DNA of 64,000 nucleotides. Origin: Pseudogymnoascus verrucosus (lineage: Eukaryota). Positions 11,286-26,000 of this stretch are shown here, one piece after another. The notes beneath the pieces are model-generated. The model was not told the DNA's origin. It did no database searches and saw only the letters and a program-made list of their open reading frames with translations. The stretch lies in assembly GCA_001662655.1 (NCBI GenBank), contig KV460253.1. One strand, 5' to 3'. Both the position numbers and the translations under genes were made by a program. How positions within the stretch are numbered: position 1 is the first letter of the stretch; the number at the start of each line of letters is the position of its first letter.

Positions 11286-14200
11286 TTACCCCTTCCCCAC
11301 CAACCTCCCCCAAACATCCCCCCAATGCGTCCTCGCCCCTCTCAACAGCGCCCACGCCAACAACCGATACACCACCGTCGCAATCGCCACCCCCAGTAAC
11401 TCCAACCTCTCATTCCCATCCAATCGAAACAGCGCCAGCACCGCCTCTCCATCCGGGACGGTGCATGTACCATCTGGCAGCGCCTGTGCAGCCGTGCATG
11501 TCAGGGTGATGGGACGGAGGGTGTAGGGGGCGAGGTTGCGGATGACGTAGCGGAGGGGGGAGAGGTAGTTGACGCCGCGGAGGAAGGCGGGCATGGAGAT
11601 GGAGAGGATGCCGGACATGATGAGGGAGATGGAGAGGATGATGGAGGTGAGGTTTAGGGCGAAGCCGGAGTGCGAGAAGAAGGTGTTGAACTGAGAGTCG
11701 TATGTTAGCTTGGTGTAGTTGAGAGAAGTTCAGGGGAGAAATAAAAAATACTAAGGGGACAGGAGTGAGAGTGTCGGAGGAGGATAGAAACAACAGAACA
11801 AAAAAAGTGGAGCAGAACTCACCACAATCCCCAAACTCTCCCCACAAGTAACAATACAAAAGCAATTAAAAACCACCACCCAAAACACCGTTGCCGTCCT
11901 CGGCAACCCCCCCGCCAAATCCGCCAACACCGCAAAAATGATACACGTCACGATCCCAAACGGGATCTCCACCGTCGTATACTGCGCCAGGAACGCCTCA
12001 ACGCTATACACGCCATCATCATGCTCGCGGTAGAAGACTGCTTTTTCTGCAGGGTATACAGCGACGTTCTGGAGCATACCAACGAAGTACAGCGCGCAGA
12101 ATTCTTGGATAAAACCGACCCGGTTCTGGACGCTGAAGTAGTCGAATTTGAGAGGCGCAAAGAAGAGAGTGAAGATTATGGCTACCCCGACCACTTGCAT
12201 GATCCGCGCGATGAGCAACTCGGGCTGACGACGTAGGTTAACAAGTGACCGCCTCACAAGGAGCGGGTACGCTGTACGAAACGGCGCAGGAGCTCTCATC
12301 AACGCGCCCAGCTCCGCAGGCGTGGCAATCGCCCCTGGTGCCGCCACAACAGCAGGTTTCTCCCTCCCCCACGCAGCAATCAAGCCCACCACACGATCCC
12401 GGCTCGCAGCCTCCCTATCCGCAGCCTGTAAATCGACTGTAATAAGATCTAGCGCAAAATCCGCCGGGTTCGTACGCGCAGGACACGGATGTCCCAGCGC
12501 CGAAAAATGTGGAAGCATGCCGCTTCCCGGACCGGCATAGCAGGGCGCACCGCCGCGCGCGAGGAGGAGCACGGTCCCGAAGTGGGCGTAGAGATCTGAG
12601 CGGGCTTGGTGGATGGTGAGGATGAGTGTGCGTCCTTCATTCGCGAGGCCACGGAGGACATCCATGATGGATGCAGCTGTGAAAGCGTCGAGTCCCGATG
12701 TGGGTTCGTCGAGGAGGAGGACGCGCGGGTCAGTGAGGATCTGGACAGCGATTGTGACGCGGCGCTTTTCGCCGCCGCTGATGCCCTTGATCAGGTCGGA
12801 GCCGACGATGTTGTCAGCGCAGTCTTTGAGGCCCATTTTGAGGAGGATGGCTTCGGCGCGGTCGTGTTTTTCGGCGGTGGTCATGTGGGAGGGGAGACGG
12901 AGGACGGCGGCGTAGCGGAGGGTTTCGCGGACGGTGAGGGAGGGGAGGAGGGCATCGTCGTCTTGGCATACGTAGGAGCACACGCTGCGGATGACGGCGT
13001 TGGAGGGCACGGCTGCGTTGAAGGTCATGGTTCCGCTGCGGAGGTAGGTCGTGCCCATCCTGTCGAAGAGCCGGAGCGCCATGGCGTTGAGGAGGGAGGT
13101 CTTCCCGCTACCTGATGGGCCCATGATGACATTTAGCACGCCGGCCTTGAATGTTGCATCTACGGGATTCAGGATCGTCTTCCTTGGAAGCTTATTCCCC
13201 AGTGCAGTCCGCTTATCGAGGTCGAGAGCGAAGCCGGATAATCCAATTTCAATAGCGCGTACCTCCTCTGCTGAACGCACGCTCATTTTCTCTTTGCCGG
13301 ACGAGAAATCTGCATCCGAGTTGCGAGCGCGACCGATCGCCATCTCGACTGGTATGTAGCGTAGCCCGAGGCCCGCTAGGATATAGAATAGGATAGCAAA
13401 GCCAAGGAGTGCCAGTATGGGCGTCGAGACCCAGTCATGCGGGAAGCCGAGCGAGTCCATCACATACGCTCCTGTATACTGTTTACACTCCGGATTTGCC
13501 TCGCCGCCTTCGAGCGGGCAATCGTAAAAGTGCCCGACGAACTCGTTGGCACAGAGAGCACCAAAAGCGTAGAAGACGTAGCTTGCCCATTTTAGCCAGC
13601 GCACATAAACCGGGATGGTGTTACTCTGGATGAAAAACCCACAAGCAAGACTCTGGATAGTGTAGTTCAGGTTCCCGATCAGCGATGCGCCAGCAAAGCT
13701 ACGATCCGCGGAAATGCAGGCGGAGGCGAATGCGATGGCGATATAGTGGTTAAGTAGGACAATCGAGAAGAAAATGAAGAACTGTGCTGCCTCAGCGCGA
13801 AAGCCCGCCATAAAGTAGAAGATCACACTGAAGATAAATGGAACAGGAAGGTCCTCGATGAGGAAGCGCGCGAGACGCCGGCTCAGGAGGAATGGGATGA
13901 CGTCGACGACGCCCTCGCCGCGCTCGCGGTCGAAGAGCTCGATATCGATTGAGAGCCGGTATGTCTCGTACATGAGGATTAGGTAGCCTTGTAGTCCGGC
14001 TGCGGTATAGAGCGCGCCCTCGCGGGAGCGGATCCCTGGTTGGTCCTCGCCGAGGGAAAGGAAGATCCAGCCAGTGATGATACCCATGAGAACGGCTTCG
14101 ATGATGCAGCTCGCCATTCCCATCGGGTCGCGTAGGGTGACCTTCGTCGTGCGCGCAGTGAGAACGAATAATTGCCTGTAGAAAGCCGAGCGCCGACTAT

Positions 14201-15407
14201 CGCTGTTCCCTGGAGCAATAACAGCACCGCCAGAGCTATGTTCATCTCCCCATTTCCGTAGCGACTCCTGGTTCCAACCTTCCTTCAAATGACGCACCTT
14301 CTCCAACGACGCTTCCTCCAGCTCCGGAGACCGGTTATCAACAGCCGCAAGGTCAATGAGGAACTCGGCCGGATTGACAAATGGCGGTAGAGAGTATCCC
14401 TTCTCCTTAAAATACGGCAACGATCCATCTGCCGGCCCACTATACACCGGCGAGCCCTTCGTAAGGATAGCCAGATTATCAAACACCCCATAAATCTCTG
14501 ACCGCGGCTGATGAATCGTCATCACAATGGTACGCCCCTTAGCCGCCAGACCTCTTAGCGTGCGCACAAGCTGATAAGCGCTCGTCGCATCCAGCCCTGT
14601 CGTCGGCTCGTCCAGAAACATCACACTTGGGTTGCTTAGCAGCTGCACTCCAATGCTCGTGCGGCGCTTCTCCCCACCCGAGCAGCCCTTATGCACATGT
14701 GTCCCAATGCGCGTATCTGCGCACTCCTTCAGTCCCAGCTCAAGAATAACCTCCTCCACCACTCTCCGCCGTTCCTCTGCTGTCGTAGGTGGCGGTAGCC
14801 GTAGGTCAGCACTATACTGCAGTGTCTCTCGCACCGTGAGCGTTGGCAGCAGCACATCCTGCTGCATCACATACGCGCTCCTAACACCTCCCAGTAGTCC
14901 ACCATTAAACGTCGCCGAGCCGCGCGCGCGCAGCCTCCCCCCTCCGTCCCCCATCCGCCCCGACATCAGATTCAACATCGTCGTCTTCCCGCTCCCACTC
15001 CCCCCAATAATCGCCGTCAGCGTCCCCCGCTCCATATCCGCGCTGACATTGTCAAGGAGCGGGCGCCAGCGCGACTCCGCCGGGGCCTTGGGCCGGAAGA
15101 GGTTCGTGAGTCCATCGGCGCTGTGGAGGTTGCGCGGGTTGGTGTCGACGCTTACCCCGAGGGCGCGGACGCGGATATCGACAGGGACGACGGAGGAGAG
15201 CGAGAGCTGCGCGCTGTGGGAGGATTGGATGGGTTGGAGGGCGTTGGTGGGGAGGCTGGCGGGGTCGAGGCGCGAGGCTTCGTGGGAGGTGCTGCGGGAG
15301 GGGGACTCGAGGTTGGAGTCGAGGTCTTTCTCTTTTTCGGGGAGGAAGGCGGGGGGAGGGGTCGAGGTGTCGCCATGAGGCGGGGTGGGAGGGGAGTCTT
15401 TCTCCAT
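11286..15407 (-). CDS. Full-size ABCG-family transporter (NBD-TMD-NBD-TMD, YOL075c-like)
   Basis: Two Walker A motifs (GGSGSGKT, GPSGSGKT), two signatures (SGGEKRR) and two Walker B motifs (LDEPT). One intron 11822-11691 restores the frame to the stop at 11286. Confidence 0.95.
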
Positions 15408-16861
15408 TGTGGTGACGGGTAGGGCGGTGGCTCAATCCATAGCCGCGGAGGGTGATCGTAGACAGATATGCGTAATAGGAAGCGCAACGAGCCGTTCGAG
15501 GGCAGATACTCGCGATATCAACCGCAGCCTCGACTTCAGCTTCAGATAGACCAGTGACAACGACCAGCGTAGTAGCAATGGCCTGACACTTATATTTTGC
15601 AATGAAAGGAAAGAAAAATGAAGACAGACAACAAAACGAAATACGAGCTTCCACCCGCCTCTGAGCTATAATTTACCTCTAGCTCGAGGAGATCCCCTCA
15701 GCCGTCATCGACCCCATGCTCCACCGGCGCGATCGCTCCATGTCAATTTCGCACGATGCGACTACTGGCACGCTATAAACCTTGACATGCCACATGCACC
15801 CAGGCTAAACTATCGCCAGCTAAAGTAGAGCCAATACTCTAGCCGACATAGCGGAAGTCTAGACGGCGCCAGCTACAGTAGTGTGAGTACCCGTGGGATT
15901 TGCAAAGGTACTCGAATAACCCCCATTGCTGCTACCACAGGACAAGAGAGCGTCATTGCAGATAGCAAGGCGTGCAATAGGAAGGTCTATATCTGCGTCA
16001 ATTCTGCACTTGCCGATAATTATCAGTTGGGGGTTCAATAAGGCAAGGATACCGTATAGTAGAGTTAGAGTAACAGTACAGGCCCAAAAGTTCCTCTACC
16101 CCCCATCCACAATCCCTTCAGCATCTCCGCTTCCCCCACCTCGCTTAGAGCAAATAACCCCCATAGCTCCTTCTTCAATTGCCAATCCCACTAATACCCC
16201 CCGCCCATCGGTCCTTCCTTCCACTCACAGCAGCCAATATACGAGATTAGCACCTCGTTCCCTACCCACAGCACCCCTACTGCAGCATCACCCCGGGAAG
16301 CGATAATCCCGCTGCACCTCGCTTAGATTTAGATGACCACCAGCTTCGTACTCGGGAGGGTGATGTTATATGATGTGATGTTATGGGATGGGCGTCATGG
16401 GATGGACATGATGGGACGAGATGGATAGATGTGACGAGGCGCTCGGAACCGATGATTTCCGCTCGGTTGGGTGGAAGAGGGGAAGGAAGGGAAGGAAGAT
16501 GCATATGCATATGCAGTCTGCAAGCACACACCAACATCTCACGATCTGCGACGGAGGAGGAGGCTCGGTAAGACAACAATGTTGTCTGTTCGGCGATGTA
16601 TATAGTAGGGAGTACTCGACACGGACAGGAGAGAAGACGCAGGGACGACTCTGTGGAAGATTAGAAGATCTAGTCTAGACGGGCTCTGGGCCCGTTCCTG
16701 CCCCGCTGTCAACGGGCCTGTCTAGACCTGGTCTGCTTGGCAGCAACTGATTTTTTGACGTCGCGTCGCCGTTGCTGGGCGCTGCGCCGCAGAGATGGAT
16801 GTCTTCTCCCCTTTCCTCCCTCCGATTTGTTCTCCCAAATACCCATCGTGACGTCGTCAAA

Positions 16862-17554
16862 ATGCGTACAACTACCCTCCTCGCCGTGGCCCTCACAGCC
16901 TCCATCGCCACCGCAACCCTCCCAGCATCCATCACCCACGCCCCCCGAGCCCAACCCACCATCTCCGAAGACCCCTGGCAGTGCGTCACCGAGAACCTAA
17001 CCCAATACCTCGACGTTCCCAAGCCCACCGGTCTCCTCTTCAGCGCGCTCCAGTCCTACGCCTCCGATCTCTACGAGCCATGTCTCGCCGCCATGTCCAC
17101 CGCCACCTACCTCGACTACTGCTTCCCTCCACAGTCAGAATGGTGCGCCTTCACCACCGCAGCGCCAAAGGACGTTCTTCCAGCCTACTCCTCATACGCG
17201 AGCCAGGCGTACTCGTGGTGGTCGGCGCGGAGCTCTACGATCGCGTTCCTGAAGCAGGATTGCCCTAATAACTGGGATCTGAGCTTGTGGCGTGTTCCAG
17301 GCGGCGAGGAGTGGCTGAATGATACTATCGCCTTCGCTGGATGCTATGCTGAGGCGCTTACGGCTACTGGACCAGCGCCGACGGGATTGACTACGGGGGG
17401 GGCAGCAACGACGGAGACGACGGCTACGAGTCGCGAGGGGGCGGCTGTGGGAAGCGCGACTCCGACGGCGACAGACGTGCCGAATGGTGCTGGGTGGGTG
17501 GGCGTAGACATGTGGATGGTTGCAATGGCTGGGTTCGCTGCTGTTGTGGTTTAG
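16862..17554 (+). CDS. Small secreted Cys-containing, probably GPI-anchored protein
   Basis: Signal peptide MRTTTLLAVALTASIATA, Cys/Trp-rich domain, Thr/Ala linker and hydrophobic C-terminus after NGA. Confidence 0.75.
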   Translation: MRTTTLLAVALTASIATATLPASITHAPRAQPTISEDPWQCVTENLTQYLDVPKPTGLLFSALQSYASDLYEPCLAAMSTATYLDYCFPPQSEWCAFTTAAPKDVLPAYSSYASQAYSWWSARSSTIAFLKQDCPNNWDLSLWRVPGGEEWLNDTIAFAGCYAEALTATGPAPTGLTTGGAATTETTATSREGAAVGSATPTATDVPNGAGWVGVDMWMVAMAGFAAVVV

Positions 17555-21454: not shown

Positions 21455-22343
21455 CCTAGATGGGGAGGAATGTCTTGTAAGGGAGTCTCATTGTCTAACT
21501 ATAGGGCGCCTAAAGAATTTCCTAGCCTAGTATGCTAAAACTAACAAGGGAACATTAAGCAGCACACCTTTACAGAAGCACTTTAACCAACAAGGTATAT
21601 AAGTATGGGGAATTATACGGCGCAGATGTTGCTTTAATCATCTATTAGAAGGGGCGTTATTACACTTACGTATCTCCTTGTAACCTATGTTTTCCACCAT
21701 CTAAGAAAGAAATCGTAGGTTTACCCCTGATTTTAAAGGTATTTACTAAATAGTAGCAAGATGAATTCGTTTCTAATCCCTATAAATATGTTTCCACATC
21801 ATTCCGATGTGAAACGTAACCCGGAAGGTCCAGAACAGGCAGGGAGTAAAGAGTAGGAAAAAATTAGGTGTGGATATAGCAACTTCTACAGTGCTAAGAG
21901 GGCGGGATGCAACCCCGGCTCAACTAAGTCTGTTCGGCCTGGCCCTAGAACTCGCCCGGCCCTTCACAAGTTGAGGGGGGCATGGTCCACTAATCCATCC
22001 AAATTAGTGCTAGATGTCCTAACCATCTCTCACCTAATGATATCGATGATTCCTGCCGAATTTATTGTCGAGAAGGTTTTTTTACTGCAACAATCACTTG
22101 GAATATTATGGCTCTTTTATACTTAATGTCACTCGCTAGCTATATTAATACCGTTGCTATTTTTACTTCGTTGTTTCCACGTGACTCTTCAAGCGATCAG
22201 GCACTTGATTGACCAAATATAGAATTCTCAGCTAGGTCATGTTGGCGAGCATTCTATAAGATGGGGCGGGGTAAGCTCAGGTGAATCTCAGCTCTACACT
22301 AAGTCACAACAACAAACGAGTAACTTATTCATCAAAGATAGCG

Positions 22344-22664
22344 ATGTATTGTCATGATTGTGATCGATTATTTGGCAGTCATCTAGCTCTCCAGCAACAC
22401 TTAATTTCTCCAGCTCATGATTTTGAATGCGACGAGTGCGATAAGTCCTTGAGGACCCGACGATCTCTCGACCAGCATCTCGACTCACCAGCTCACAACT
22501 TCGAATGCGACGAGTGCGATCGGACATTTAGAAGCCAACATAGTCTTGACCAGCACCTTGACTCCCCGGCTCACGATTTCGAATGCGACGAGTGCGGCCG
22601 GACCTTCAGGGCGGAACGGTCTCTCGTCCAGCATCGTCCAGCATCGTCAGTACTTTGCCCATAA
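22344..22664 (+). pseudogene. Truncated tandem C2H2 zinc-finger gene (three complete 25-aa fingers plus one broken)
   Basis: Repeats FECDECD(R/K)xFRxxxSLDQHLDSPAH. The fourth finger is cut at a duplicated CGTCCAGCAT and lacks its last His. Confidence 0.7.
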
Positions 22665-23643
22665 TCGAAGGTTGGGGCCGGCGCGAGAGATAATGTGAGT
22701 TGGGGCAACTTCACCAACTCCACCAAAAGCGAGGAGAAAGTGAGCCGCGTGCGTGGCTGCCGGCGCCATTTAAAGTACTTATTAAAATCCCCTGCCTTTT
22801 CTGATGTGTTTCGACCTGGGCGATAGCTCCATGGCTACAAGCCTAGCTTAACTTAGTGCCTCTATTGCCTCAATGCGCCATCACAACACGTGACCCGAGT
22901 TCGAAGGTCGATGGTCTCTTCGATTCAGGGTCTGTCAGGGTAAAAAAGGGATTCGCTGCAGGCAGTGTACGAAGTACGACGAATGTCTCAAAAGCCAACG
23001 CATTAACCAGTAAGGCGATGACACTAGCTCAGCATTTTGCATACACCAGAGACAAAGACTCGTAAATACGGTCCGAGCAGGCACATTTAGCTGATAGCCA
23101 CGTCCAGCCACGCCCAGACACGCCCAGCCATGACAGCCCAAAAAGCTTGAAAATCAAATCAAATGAAAAAGGTACCAATGCGGCTACCCTCAGACGAATA
23201 GGTGCCACTGTGGCTGAGCTAGCCACTTTAGCAGCCTATAGCTAGTCGCGTCGGGTAAATCAATAAACTAATATTTTAAAACTAACGATTGTTTTCCTCC
23301 GTTTGATCCCCCGTCCCATCAACTTCAGCTGTTGGACTTGCTGCTTGATATGGTGCTACACTAGTACTTTGCATACGATCGAATTTTAACTAATCCACTT
23401 TGAAGTAGCATTTTATTGCCACGCAATTCACCATGATCACCAACAATGTGCTATGTAGTGCAGTAGCGCGGATAACAACTCTTGATTGAAATGCTACTTC
23501 ATGTACTGTAAACTCTTTCATTCTCTCTTTCTCTCTCTCTCTCTTTCTCCTCTTACACTTCCCTTCCCTTACACCGAGTACTAGTACTCCCTGTTGCTTT
23601 TCATCTACTTGCATGCTCACTCGCTTGCTTACATTCGTTTAAT

Positions 23644-25764
23644 ATGAGGGGTCTTCTCTTCCTAACGCTCGCTGCTAATCTAGGCTCTGCCTTTGCTCAG
23701 GTTTGTCTCTCTCTCTTTCTGTCTCTATCTCTCTTCCCCGACGGAAAGCTTCTTTGGCGACGATTCTAACTGTTGTTGTAGGTTGTTGACTTGGGATTAG
23801 CGGCGTCGTATGGGGTTCTTGCTCATGCTTCAATCTCTAACTCCGGCCCTACGACTGTTAATGGAGATATTGGAACTACCGGCACATCTATAGTTGGATT
23901 TCCCCCGGGAGTCTACACTGGAAATAGAAACGTAGGCTTGCTAGCTACTACTGCTTTCAACAATGCTGAAGCCGCATACACAACCCTTGGCCAACTACCA
24001 GGCATTATTTTAGTTGGAAATCTAGGAGGAAGGCTTCTCCCGCCAGGAGTTTACAGGTTCCCTACAGCTGCAGTATTGTCCGGTACCTTGATTCTTGCAG
24101 GACAGGGTTCCCCTTGCGACTCATGGGTCTTTCTAATCGGCAGCACTCTGTCTACTTCGGTTGGATCATCTGTGATAGTAACGGGAGGAGGGAATCCCGG
24201 CAACGTCTTCTGGAGGGTTGGAGCATCGGCTACTATTCAAATTGGCAGCCAGTTTAGTGGAAATATACTTGCCGGAGTCGCTGTTACGTTGAATCCAGGA
24301 GCTTCCATTCAGGGGAGTGTATATGCTCTTGGTTCATCGGTTGTTTTGAACAGCAATGAGGTTGCAGCACAGGCAAACTCTTGTCCATTGGGTGCTTCAA
24401 CATCAACTTCTGTATCATCAACTTCTACAACCGCGTCCTCGGATTCTTCGACGAGCACTGATGTCTCAACAACCACGGACTCTTCAACCTCCACGACCAC
24501 GGATGTGACAACAACCACTTCGTCGGATTCTTCAACAAGCACTGATGTCTCAACCACTTCGACAAGCACTGATGTCCCGACAAACACTTCAACCAGCACT
24601 GATATCCCGACAACCACAGACTCTTCCACCTCCACGGATGTGACAACAACCACTTCGACAAGCACTGATGTTTCGACAACCGACGTTTCGACAACCACTG
24701 ATATCACAACAGCCACTTCGACAACCACTGATGTCACAACAGCCACTTCGACAACCACTGATGTCACAACAGCCACTTCAACAAGCACTGATATCCCAAC
24801 AGCCACGGATGTCACAACGGCCACGGATACCACAACAGCCACGGATATCACAACAGCCACTTCCACCTCTACGGATGTCACAACAACCACTTCGACAAGC
24901 ACTGATGTCCCAACTACCACAGACTCTTCATCGTCAAGCTCCTCAGTTACATCTGCGTTTGCGTCATTAACATCGACGTCTACGGCTTCATTACCTTCTT
25001 TGACTAGTTCCACAATAATTTCTGTAACAAATTCATCGGCTATATCTTCTCCACCAGCATCAACCACGTCGATAGTCTATGCAACAACCGTCTACACGAT
25101 CACGAAATGCCCAGCAACTGTCACCAACTGCCCTATTGGCTCTGCCACCACAGAGCTCATCAGTCTATACACGACTGTATGCCCCGTAGCCGCCTCGGCA
25201 ACAAAACAACCACCCTCCGGATATACCGTCTCAACCGTCTTCACTACTATCGTCTACACGATCACCAAGTGCCCTAAGACGGTCACAAACTGTCCTGTGG
25301 GATCCGTCACAACGGAGATCAGAAGCCTCTACACTACCACCTGCCCTGTCACACAATCTTTTGTGAACAGTGTGCTAACTCCTCAGTCTAGCATTCCTGC
25401 CCGTCCTGCTTCTTCCCAGCTTCCTGCTGCGGTATTGCCAAGTAGGATTTCTTCGATAGCTATTGCAAGCCCTGTCTCCACTGTGTCTCTAGCTTTGGGG
25501 CTCTCTGGTGCAGCCCCTGTCTCCTCTGTCTCTCCCGCCTCGGGGCCCTCTAGCGTCCAAGGCAGCGTCCTAGTGATTGGAGCACCACCATCATCGAATC
25601 TTGTGATCTCGACCGTCACGGCATCTAAGGGCACGGTTAACGTTTCTCAAACTTCTCAGCCTTCAGCTGCTTATACGGGGCCAATTTCTAGCAGTGGTGT
25701 AATGAATAAGGGTACTAGTGCAAGTTTGTTAGTTCTTGCGATTGGGGCTCTACTATTTTTGTAA
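23644..25764 (+). CDS. Secreted DUF3494 (IBP-1 fold) ice-binding-like protein with Ser/Thr stalk, two Cys cell-wall repeats and a GPI-type C-terminus
   Basis: Signal exon 23644-23700, intron 23701-23781, exon 2 in frame. Motifs VDLGxAxSYGVLA, GxTTVNGDIG, GFPPG, LGGxxLxPGVY, VFLIGSTL, NVFWRVGASAT, FSGNILA and VVLNSN. Also TTVYTITKCPxTVTNCP twice and a hydrophobic tail. Confidence 0.9.
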
Positions 25765-26000
25765 GCCTAATTATTGTATATAGGGGTCGTACGTACGGCT
25801 CACAAATATTTAATCTAATTATATAAATTTTACTTCTTAGGGATGTCAGTTCAGGATTTGGAAGGCAATGTAGATTGTTATATAACTGTAGTAAAACTGA
25901 TGATGTTGTTTAGAGAAATTGGGGTGAGACCATGGTGAGTCGACGGATGGCACGACAGTATTTAGGGAACCAGTCAACTGCTTTCGCGCTTCTTAGGCAC

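Follow-up and report, generated by a model that had tools for sequence, protein, structure and literature searches.

The gene at 23644-25764 encodes a 679-residue protein that we explain, with about even confidence, as a wall- or membrane-tethered ice-binding protein that would control ice recrystallisation at the hyphal surface, with the binding of hyphae to ice as a secondary effect. Its domain order, a DUF3494 head on a Thr/Ser/Asp-rich stalk followed by Cys repeats and a GPI-attachment-type signal, indicates that the protein is probably retained at the cell surface and not released. All of the elements listed for this locus in a first-pass annotation were located at these coordinates by sequence inspection and profile search, and they are collected in Table 1.

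The window, a 64,000-nucleotide stretch of contig KV460253.1 from the cold-tolerant soil fungus Pseudogymnoascus verrucosus, carries the gene on the plus strand as two exons. The raw frame is not open because the intron holds two in-frame stops. The spliced product matches the database record 'hypothetical protein VE01_08688 [Pseudogymnoascus verrucosus]' (P0001) at 100% identity. The gene is transcribed and correctly spliced in a close relative. An intron-less contig from the run of that relative (X1) spans 23589-24026, and all contigs of the run together cover 23589-25837. Position 23698 is joined straight to 23780 in record 1 of run X1, a junction equivalent to 23700/23782 because AG is repeated. 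The intron is retained in the DNA-like run X14, which reads through it. Approximately 6% of each of the raw RNA-seq runs X23 and X24 gave 0 reads on the stretch, a sample that is no test of expression. A tblastn search detected no second copy of the DUF3494 domain or of the Cys repeats within the window. The neighbouring genes (ABC transporter, DUF7735, C2H2 zinc finger, M20-like, PLP enzyme, and fungal transcription factor) suggest no functional link. An antisense open reading frame at 24309-25076 (255 aa) is not accepted as a gene, since its low-complexity V/E/T/S runs come from reading the repeat stalk in reverse.

Table 1. Features of the gene for the putative tethered ice-binding protein, in window coordinates
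Feature	Position	Strand	Residues	Description and basis
Exon 1	23644..23700	+		Start codon and 19-aa signal peptide; sequence, spliced product identical to P0001
Intron	23701..23781	+		81 nt, GTTTGT...CTAAC...TAG, length in frame
Exon 2	23782..25764	+		Stop codon at end
DUF3494 / IBP-1 beta-solenoid head	23782..24390	+	20-222	With Cys131 and Cys220; PF11999, predicted structure
Acidic Thr/Ser/Asp mucin-like stalk	24391..25071	+	223-449	Composition, DNA tandem repeats
Two 3-Cys repeats	25072..25359	+	about 450-545	Conserved fungal C-terminal cassette, no Pfam family
Ser/Val/Ala/Pro-rich spacer	25360..25689	+	546-655	Composition
GPI-attachment-type signal (candidate)	25690..25764	+	656-679	Small-residue omega candidates, polar spacer, 12-residue hydrophobic end, then stop codon

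The head had been described as a single DUF3494-like beta-solenoid, and this description agrees with both the profile search and the predicted structure. The PF11999 search proposed in the first-pass annotation returned a strong match to the Ice_binding family (E 2.5e-41) that covers profile positions 1-207 of 208 at 142.1 bits, where the curated cutoff is 28.7 bits. The best solved relatives, all deposited as ice-binding or antifreeze proteins, are 7bwx (AnpIBP1a, E 4.8e-38), 6eio (2.1e-26), and 5uyt (1.2e-22); 6bg8_A (SfIBP_1) matches with an E value of 3.7e-17. The AlphaFold2 model of the head (pLDDT 94.7, pTM 0.90) places a helix at residues 53-70 of the modelled segment beside stacked short strands. 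All 31 of the Foldseek matches at E<=1e-3 are DUF3494 crystal structures titled ice-binding or antifreeze, engineered mutants included, and the best of these superimposes with a TM of 0.89 and an rmsd of 1.0 A at 42% identity (7bwy/7bwx). As modelled, the head has the triangular right-handed DUF3494 beta-solenoid fold with a long alpha-helix alongside.

The putative ice-binding surface was mapped by aligning the head to the ice-binding rows of AnpIBP as given in the available text of PMC7277481, with the outward-facing positions taken from the AnpIBP pattern and not from coordinates. By this alignment, 20 of the 27 outward positions on the B-face are A/G/S/T and 0 of 27 are D/E/K/R/H/F/W/Y; a hand count for AnpIBP from the same text gives 20/27 small or hydroxyl residues (A/G/S/T) and 3/27 that are charged or aromatic. 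The small, hydroxyl-bearing, uncharged character of the face extends across the clade of the head (19-24 of 25-27 outward positions). The Thr that matches T156 of AnpIBP is kept in the head, and Ser153 of AnpIBP is replaced by Ala. The second Pseudogymnoascus record (P0002) has Asn in place of the conserved Thr. Exon 2 differs from that of a related strain by 14 non-synonymous and 11 synonymous changes; within the head the numbers are 8 and 3, and four of the eight non-synonymous changes fall on outward positions of the B-face. Judged from these counts, the strain differences in exon 2 and in the head are not those of strong purifying selection.

The claimed signal peptide was recognised by inspection in residues 1-19, which contain Arg2, a core of hydrophobic residues at 4-17 (Kyte-Doolittle 1.76), and the sequence A-F-A preceding Gln19 and the likely cleavage site. 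The Thr/Ser/Asp stalk is present as claimed, and its length is 227 residues, not the earlier figure of about 250. It is composed of 93 Thr, 62 Ser, and 22 Asp with no Lys, Arg, or Glu (Ser+Thr 68%). The underlying DNA contains tandem repeats with periods of 30/60 at 24530-24914 (TRF), and an indel of 2 residues separates the stalks of the two Pseudogymnoascus records. Both of the reported TTVYTITKCPxTVTNCP repeats were found, each with three Cys (462/469/486 and 516/523/540). No Pfam family matches the Cys-repeat region at E<=1. An AlphaFold2 model of this module from a 31-row alignment contains four long strands in a fold that is unreliable (pLDDT 47.5, pTM 0.30), and an ESM Atlas feature search provided weak leads, the best at 0.78, with recognition under the useful range.

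The product ends, as had been stated, in 12 hydrophobic residues (Kyte-Doolittle 3.12) with small residues upstream. For the proposed GPI check, the tail was inspected and compared with a permissive fungal GPI pattern, one that also fits 24 of 150 mostly bacterial matches. The tail is built like a GPI signal, and this pattern places omega candidates at 655, 656, 657, 661, and 663. Relative to P0002, the signal peptide is 100% identical, as are the Cys repeats (96/96) and the tail (24/24); the head, stalk, and spacer vary, and the aligned spacers agree in 99 columns, with 11 mismatches and 7 gap columns. Among bacterial relatives of the head, many carry a C-terminal hydrophobic stretch followed by basic residues, or LPXTG labels.

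The cassette motif was identified in 38 of 97 matches from a word-indexed search of annotated proteins, and all 38 have a hydrophobic C-terminal tail. The same combination of Cys repeats and tail ends GH18 chitinases, PF26113 glucanase-like proteins, WSC proteins, aspartic proteases, and phosphatase-family proteins. The head itself falls in a 20-row clade (SH-aLRT 98), with 17 of the rows named as Leotiomycetes. The complete arrangement of head, stalk, Cys repeats, and hydrophobic tail is present in eight of the 20 database models, and two different Cys-repeat types occur among these eight; the remaining models are partial or differently ended. Where the database models of relatives are odd, the cause looks to be a mis-framed reading of the repeats and not decay. 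The layout is found again in other Leotiomycetes, and its features are therefore no product of chance. The earlier head-stalk-anchor reading is strengthened since the cassette is common to fungal wall enzymes and the layout to related fungi. The clade takes in pathogens of temperate crops and trees as well as root endophytes (Rhynchosporium, Diplocarpon, Drepanopeziza, Cadophora, Phialocephala, and Leptodontidium), none of them organisms of icy habitats, a distribution that weakens a cold-specialist reading of the family. Two Pseudogymnoascus records are among the matches of the word-indexed search, which covered annotated proteins and not genomes. None of the solved or characterised proteins that match the head in structure-database searches comes from the 20-row clade.

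The following scheme is inferred with respect to GPI processing, attachment to the wall, glycosylation, the binding of ice, and physiology. The protein would enter the secretory pathway, where its C-terminal signal would be replaced by a GPI anchor, and it would then be kept on the plasma membrane or be cross-linked into the cell wall. Approximately 430 residues, made up of the O-glycosylated acidic stalk, the Cys repeats, and the spacer, would keep the DUF3494 head at the surface of the wall or further out. Ice would be bound via the flat Ser/Thr/Ala-rich B-face of the head, as it is by AnpIBP1a. Because the head would be tethered, ice shaping and recrystallisation inhibition would be concentrated at the boundary between hypha and ice and would not diffuse away. 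The architecture fits the layout of an ice adhesin, with a putative ice-binding module placed distally on a long, putatively anchored protein, and the sticking of hyphae or spores to ice is a possible by-product and not the main role. For a fungus of soil or wood, ice control at the wall seems more plausible than the binding of hyphae to ice, by the same argument as that made in the available text on a PEP-CTERM-anchored Nostoc protein (PMC7783341). Secreted fungal ice-binding proteins must concentrate on the mycelial surface to work, according to the part of a review that was available (PMC13062971).

The same anchor and stalk might instead present an adhesin for a target other than ice, with the flat DUF3494 face binding some other ordered surface, for example plant cuticle or wall polymers, minerals, or other cells, and with the ice-binding name as a mere family label. 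This alternative is possible, if rather doubtful. The spread of the clade over temperate plant pathogens and root endophytes would suit it, as would the variation of B-face positions between close strains. DUF3494 proteins are common in bacteria of non-freezing habitats and other surfaces have been suggested as their ligands (Raymond 2024, PMC11645318, available text), and PF11999 is counted among the adhesive domains of bacterial fibrillar adhesins in the accessible portion of PMC8286594. However, all of the close relatives with solved structures were deposited as ice-binding or antifreeze proteins, the B-face is small, hydroxyl-rich, and uncharged throughout the clade, and all of the host fungi face frost seasonally. 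A non-ice ligand for any DUF3494 protein was not found in the literature searched.

Many fungal GPI proteins are partly shed, and this counts in favour of a protein that is effectively secreted. The GPI signal and stalk would then serve only for transit, and cleavage of the anchor or proteolysis of the stalk would release the protein to the medium or the extracellular matrix, where it would act like the free fungal proteins. The characterised fungal DUF3494 structures are indeed all small, free proteins (216-241 residues), in line with the earlier statement on fungal IBP-1 proteins, and ice-binding proteins, once secreted, are proposed to become trapped in polysaccharide outside the cell (PMC13062971, in the text available). 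We nevertheless consider shedding of this kind improbable. The cassette and the tail are the most conserved parts of the protein between the two Pseudogymnoascus records, and the cassette is common to wall-acting enzymes. Lachnellula suecica and Stipitochalara longipes each have a free form and a long form that fall in separate clades, and the retention of both suggests that the two forms are not redundant. It is very improbable that the protein is a generic wall mannoprotein, a glycosylated wall filler whose head, acquired by an old horizontal transfer, survives as a drifting relic without a specific ligand. The ratio of non-synonymous to synonymous differences in the head, the apparently patchy occurrence of the gene within the genus in the annotated-protein search, and the truncated or odd database models of several relatives would be explained in this way, but the fold is predicted with very high confidence, the head is intact and the character of its B-face is kept across the Leotiomycete clade, and the gene is transcribed and correctly spliced.

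The tethered ice-binding protein favoured here may belong to a wider group. We propose tentatively, and with somewhat less than even confidence, that the Leotiomycetes have a class-wide family of GPI- or wall-tethered DUF3494 proteins, built at least two times with different Cys-repeat cassettes, which form an ice-managing coat on hyphae and spores. If this is true, they would be the first eukaryotic ice-binding proteins tethered to the cell wall, and they could explain the tolerance of extracellular ice by ascomycetes for which secreted ice-binding activity has not been detected, overwintering plant pathogens included. In this proposal, the acidic Thr-rich stalk, with its putatively dense O-glycosylation, might also contribute to the interaction with ice. 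A description of a fungal head-stalk-GPI DUF3494 protein was not found in the literature searched, and the domain-architecture survey of Vance et al. 2019 may already list fungal long forms. Ice terms are absent from the main text of PMC8746771, ice-binding, antifreeze, and DUF3494 are unmentioned in PMC11678538 on the temperature adaptation of Helotiales, and ice-binding terms occur only in a reference or the introduction in PMC12387347 and PMC10703952.

If experiments confirm it, tethering would add a new means by which fungi deal with ice. How a diffusible protein protects a hypha is a recurring problem in this field, for which the review cited above falls back, in its available part, on adsorption to extracellular polysaccharide (PMC13062971). 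With a DUF3494 protein that is tethered genetically, this problem would be solved directly, and tethering would make the question of hyphal protection testable with one gene. According to the text available for PMC11645318, the DUF3494 proteins of eukaryotes are so far known only from organisms that live in icy habitats. That statement is contradicted by the approximately 20 related Leotiomycete proteins, many of which are from temperate crop and tree pathogens and root endophytes. Either surface frost tolerance is wider in the Leotiomycetes, or the DUF3494 face of eukaryotic proteins binds a ligand other than ice, and both outcomes would be informative.

Among known systems, the closest structural counterpart of the head is AnpIBP1a from the Antarctic Leotiomycete Antarctomyces psychrotrophicus (7BWX/7BWY), which shares the DUF3494 fold with the modelled head at 134 bits and 41-42% identity (TM 0.89, rmsd 1.0-1.1 A). 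The B-face rows of the two proteins align one to one, with similar contents of small and hydroxyl residues. AnpIBP1a is, however, a free secreted protein with a deposited chain of 222 residues and a short basic tail, and it lacks the stalk, the Cys repeats, and the GPI-type tail. Nor does it represent the nearest lineage: placed by bit-score comparison and not in the tree, AnpIBP1a scores 134 bits to the head, 129 bits to the Lachnellula long form, and 120 bits to the free fungal clade. The nIBP of Nostoc sp. HG1 resembles the protein described here in having a DUF3494 head and a C-terminal sorting signal expected to keep it at the surface, according to the accessible text of PMC7783341. Its authors reason there that recrystallisation is inhibited better by a tethered than by a secreted protein and that ice adhesion is unlikely for Nostoc. 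It differs in being bacterial, with PEP-CTERM in place of GPI and no mucin stalk or Cys repeats, and in that source, too, the anchoring is deduced.

The bacterial MpIBP is an ice adhesin. SfIBP_1 from Shewanella frigidimarina (6BG8) and bacterial PF11999 fibrillar adhesins have a cell-attached DUF3494 head on a long repetitive stalk, a layout like that of the fungal protein, and these proteins have been proposed as ice adhesins (PMC8286594, available text). Their stalks consist of folded Ig-like domains, whereas the stalk here is of low complexity with predicted O-glycosylation, and their anchors are bacterial. The modelled head is only distantly related to 6BG8 (25% identity by structural alignment).

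The Als, Epa, and Flo adhesins have an N-terminal binding head, a strain-variable Ser/Thr-rich repeat stalk, and a GPI signal. The layout of the present protein follows the same logic, but its head is unrelated to theirs in sequence or fold, and no Pfam adhesin family was matched in it. The fungal wall enzymes (Endochitinase A1 / Chitinase 2 of GH18, PF26113, and WSC proteins) share with it a Ser/Thr-rich linker, one to four of the same 3-Cys repeats, and a hydrophobic end; within the genus, the cassette is found on a PF26113 protein of Pseudogymnoascus (P0096). These enzymes are probably GPI-anchored, in line with the literature on Aspergillus chitinases. Their N-terminal cargo is an enzyme, whereas the cargo of the protein described here is a DUF3494 head.

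The raw frame from position 23644 is broken by two stops. Joining exon 1 to exon 2 across a standard fungal intron gives a product of 679 residues that is identical to P0001, the database record of the window's own protein, which is named 'hypothetical protein VE01_08688 [Pseudogymnoascus verrucosus]' by its source and carries a UniRef label that begins 'DUF3494 domain-containing'. The sequence is therefore already public under an automatic label, and the span of 23644–25764 assigned to the gene in the first-pass annotation was right. The neighbouring genes are ordinary fungal ones; those not listed in the table are an M20-like peptidase fragment, a PLP-dependent enzyme and a fungal-specific transcription factor. 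No second copy of the DUF3494 domain or of the C-terminal cassette is found within the 64-kb window.

Positions of the gene and of features around it, counted along the whole window
Feature	Positions	Strand	Evidence or remark
Large ABC transporter	11754–15431	-	two ABC_tran and two ABC2_membrane stretches
DUF7735 protein	16751–17554	+	E 7.6e-58
Open frame with repeated C2H2/JAZ-type zinc fingers	22275–22664	+	PF12171, E 3.4e-22; 1 kb upstream of the gene
CT-rich tract	23520–23560		
Exon 1	23644–23700	+	sequence
Intron (81 nt)	23701–23781	+	GTTTGT donor, CTAAC branch site, TAG acceptor
Exon 2	23782–25764	+	sequence
Open frame of 255 aa, rejected as a gene	24309–25076	-	antisense, across the stalk

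The splice joint appears in X1, a contig run whose RNA status is a guess. A 357-nt contig of this run aligns by nucleotides 1–247 to 23780–24026 and by nucleotides 248–357 to 23589–23698; the 81 nt missing between the two pieces are exactly those of the intron. The joint, read from the contig pieces since the automatic joint listing skipped a repeat at 23699–23737, appears at 23698/23780, which is the same as 23700/23782 owing to a repeated AG. The X1 contigs cover 23589–25837 and nothing else within the compared interval of 23500–25900. The contigs of a second run, X14, are very long and DNA-like and read through the intron. Both runs differ from the window by about 1% at identical sites, and their source is therefore a close relative and not the window's strain. 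We read these alignments as evidence that, in that relative, transcription and splicing of the gene follow the model. The raw RNA-seq runs X23 and X24 gave 0 reads on 23500–25900, a sampling that provides no test of expression. Coverage of the transcript begins shortly after the CT-rich tract, which is similar to pyrimidine-rich core promoters known from filamentous fungi.

The DUF3494 head proposed in the first-pass annotation is matched by PF11999 (Ice_binding) in a Pfam search at E 2.5e-41, scoring 142.1 bits (cutoff 28.7) over positions 1–207 of the 208 in the profile. No other Pfam match is found anywhere in the 679 residues at E ≤ 1. All 25 matches at E ≤ 0.01 in a PDB sequence search are DUF3494 proteins, the best being 7bwx_A (4.8e-38), 6eio (2.1e-26) and 5uyt (1.2e-22); the first of these is AnpIBP1a, the free secreted ice-binding protein of Antarctomyces psychrotrophicus. 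The AlphaFold2 model of the head, calculated from a 40-row alignment, has a pLDDT of 94.7 and a pTM of 0.90, and has the long helix and the stack of short strands that typify the family. When this model was compared with the PDB using Foldseek, ranks 1–31, which comprise every match at E ≤ 1e-3, were DUF3494 crystal structures, and rank 32 onward had E values of 5.6e-3 and worse. The top match is 7bwy_A (TM 0.89, rmsd 1.0 Å, 42% identity). Cys 131 and Cys 220 of the head (DNA ~24115–24117 and 24382–24384) are absent in AnpIBP1a and conserved at the aligned positions in the long forms of Lachnellula, Hyaloscypha and Stipitochalara; a disulfide between them may link the head's end with the solenoid.

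The ice-binding site of AnpIBP consists of seven rows on its B-face, according to an excerpt of Yamauchi et al. 2020 (PMC7277481). These rows were transferred to the window head via a phmmer alignment and a MAFFT alignment of clade members, the outward-facing positions thus being borrowed from the AnpIBP pattern and not from coordinates. On this basis, Ala, Gly, Ser or Thr occupy 20 of the 27 outward B-face positions and charged or aromatic residues occupy 0 of 27; the corresponding values for AnpIBP, counted by hand from the published rows, are 20 of 27 and 3 of 27. The equivalent of AnpIBP T156 is retained and that of S153 is Ala. Among the 20 members of the clade described below, small or hydroxyl residues account for 19–24 of 25–27 positions. 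In composition, this putative binding face looks like one that binds ice, though another flat ligand may also fit it. Comparison with the X1/X14 strain gives 14 non-synonymous and 11 synonymous differences for the whole of exon 2, and 8 and 3, respectively, for the head. Four of the 8 head replacements fall on the 27 outward B-face positions (residues 40, 117, 167 and 204), and all four are swaps among Ala, Ser, Thr, Val and Ile; the counts are small, and the enrichment on this face is a simple calculation of ours. In P0002, the second Pseudogymnoascus record, the conserved Thr matching T156 is replaced by Asn. This close-strain variation argues against strong constraint.

The stalk (residues 223–449) contains 93 Thr, 62 Ser and 22 Asp residues, is devoid of Lys, Arg and Glu, and is encoded by imperfect tandem repeats with a period of 30/60. 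The antisense open frame across it mirrors the repeat in low-complexity sequence and is unlikely to be a gene. Two units of three Cys each follow the stalk (462/469/486 and 516/523/540), and then a spacer of 110 residues rich in Ser, Val, Ala and Pro. At the C-terminal end, a short polar spacer separates small residues from the final 12 residues, which are hydrophobic (Kyte-Doolittle 3.12). A pattern described for fungal GPI signals gives omega candidates at 655, 656, 657, 661 and 663. The pattern is loose and also fits 24 of the best 150 of 10,955 head-search matches, many of them clearly non-fungal; the predicted GPI signal is therefore graded as of the right form and unproven. The 430 residues from head to omega site could span a wall if extended and O-mannosylated like other fungal stalks.

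A search with the full-length protein provided 97 proteins at E ≤ 0.001 among 7,997 scored candidates. Many of these align to the C-terminal part only and carry other N-terminal domains, namely GH18 chitinase (PF00704), PF26113, WSC (PF01822), aspartic protease (PF00026) and PF00328; several of the PF26113 proteins are named endo-1,3(4)-beta-glucanase. The Cys-unit motif, which is strict and misses obvious cases such as P0040 and P0044, is detected in 38 of the 97, and a hydrophobic C-terminal tail is present in all 38. Because the same C-terminal part sits behind varied N-terminal domains together with such a tail, the cassette is, judged by these alignments, a fungal tail end common to extracellular proteins. 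No Pfam family matches the cassette at E ≤ 1, its AlphaFold model is unreliable (pLDDT 47.5), and an ESM Atlas search with it gave nothing useful. P0001 and P0002 are identical in the signal peptide (19/19), the Cys repeats (96/96) and the tail (24/24), and differ by 9 changes over 203 positions in the head, by 13 changes and 2 gap columns in the stalk, and by 11 changes and 7 gap columns in the spacer. On this comparison, the anchor parts are the most constrained.

The nearest heads (57–61% identity) belong to Lachnellula suecica (long form of 914 aa with three Cys units and the tail), Hyaloscypha variabilis (581 aa), Stipitochalara longipes (long form, 429 aa) and Lachnellula cervina (partial). 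The head of the Cudoniella acicularis model (553 aa) is truncated, with 58% local identity over just 20% of the query, and this model was excluded from the trees. The free single-domain fungal forms of Icmadophila, Stipitochalara and Lachnellula suecica (241–262 aa) do not exceed 45% identity. A scan of 1.84 billion representatives with the head gave 10,955 matches at E ≤ 0.001, 300 of them at E ≤ 1e-30. Within the best 150 of the 10,955, a second set of proteins (type 2) has a signal peptide, a DUF3494 head, a Ser/Thr stalk, 2–3 copies of a different repeat with 5–6 Cys, and a hydrophobic tail. Full type 2 proteins occur in Cadophora gregata, Rhynchosporium spp., Drepanopeziza brunnea and Rhexocercosporidium, and related proteins whose ends differ or are broken come from Diplocarpon coronariae and Leptodontidium. 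The hosts of this type 2 subfamily (P0287, P0298, P0303 and P0320; also P0301, P0324 and P0355) are Helotiales, mostly temperate plant pathogens or root endophytes.

Two trees were constructed, the first from 85 of the 127 head rows (the 80 best-scoring and named ones) and the second from 88 rows (52 single-stretch matches and 36 earlier rows, with 98 multi-stretch matches excluded). By the quick method used for both, with SH-aLRT support only and a midpoint root, the window's own type 1 group (6 rows) has a support of 97 and the type 2 group (10 rows, including three unlabelled) a support of 99. Together with Mollisia, Phialocephala and two metagenome rows they constitute one 20-row clade (support 98), and the free fungal forms group apart in a clade of their own (support 100). 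AnpIBP1a is about equidistant, at 134 bits to the window head, 129 to the Lachnellula long form and 120 to the free clade. The names in the 20-row clade are 17 Leotiomycetes, 2 unnamed metagenome proteins and 1 protein labelled as a deltaproteobacterial MAG. The last, P0300 (308 aa), sits beside Cadophora in the fungal type 2 clade and is possibly a mis-binned fungal contig. The complete layout is present in 8 of the 20 rows by the database models, the other 12 being partial or differently ended. Several database models of the relatives, including P0004, P0005 and P0007 (Hyaloscypha, Cudoniella and Lachnellula cervina), have nonsense-like stretches rich in Phe, Tyr, Asn and Lys in place of the stalk, which are probably mis-framed or mis-spliced repeat regions.

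P0145, a DUF3494 protein of the rotifer Didymodactylos carnosus, is on a long branch among the relatives and looks like another eukaryote acquisition. Many bacterial head relatives have a hydrophobic C-terminal stretch followed by Arg/Lys, or LPXTG/sortase-related labels (e.g., P0032, P0046, P0019, P0029, P0335 and P0365). Among the best 150 of the 10,955 matches, dibasic residues are found within the last 12 positions in 27 and LPXTG within the last 60 in 3. Surface tethering of DUF3494 domains thus seems common in the bacterial relatives too.

The layout is no one-off; on these alignments and trees it is that of an old Leotiomycete family that uses two different Cys cassettes, a recurrence that strongly supports a surface-display role for the window protein. 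The fungi of the clade overwinter under frost, so an ice role is reasonable, though not compelled. Many of the hosts are temperate plant pathogens and root endophytes, which counts against ice. According to Raymond 2024 (PMC11645318), the eukaryotic DUF3494 proteins so far all come from icy-habitat organisms, and those of bacteria from non-freezing sites may bind other surfaces.

Attachment to ice brings aquatic bacteria light and oxygen, and we see no comparable gain for a fungus living in soil or wood. To stop ice growth near hyphae, secreted fungal ice-binding proteins probably must concentrate in the mycelial extracellular polysaccharide, according to passages of the Hoshino 2025 review (PMC13062971), which also states that none have been found in ascomycetous snow moulds. 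For a PEP-CTERM-bearing Nostoc protein, an extract from Raymond and co-workers (PMC7783341) considers that recrystallisation would be inhibited better at the cell surface than by a secreted protein, and that ice adhesion is unlikely. For these reasons, tethered control of ice at the wall would rank above an ice adhesin, the two roles being compatible with each other.

No description of a GPI-type or wall-tethered fungal DUF3494 protein was found in the literature searched, which lacked most subscription journals, and a prior mention is possible. Among the papers found, the ice-adhesin literature on DUF3494 is bacterial, algal or general, and that linking DUF3494 with GPI concerns a snow alga; none of the PF11999 literature matches listed is fungal. 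By their titles and abstracts, the papers that combine ice-binding proteins with GPI anchoring and the cell wall deal with other subjects. In fungi, attaching a cargo domain to a GPI stalk is routine. Bacteria have known or proposed anchored DUF3494 proteins, among them fibrillar adhesins with a PF11999 head (PMC8286594). The value of the finding lies in a testable idea and a family-wide pattern.
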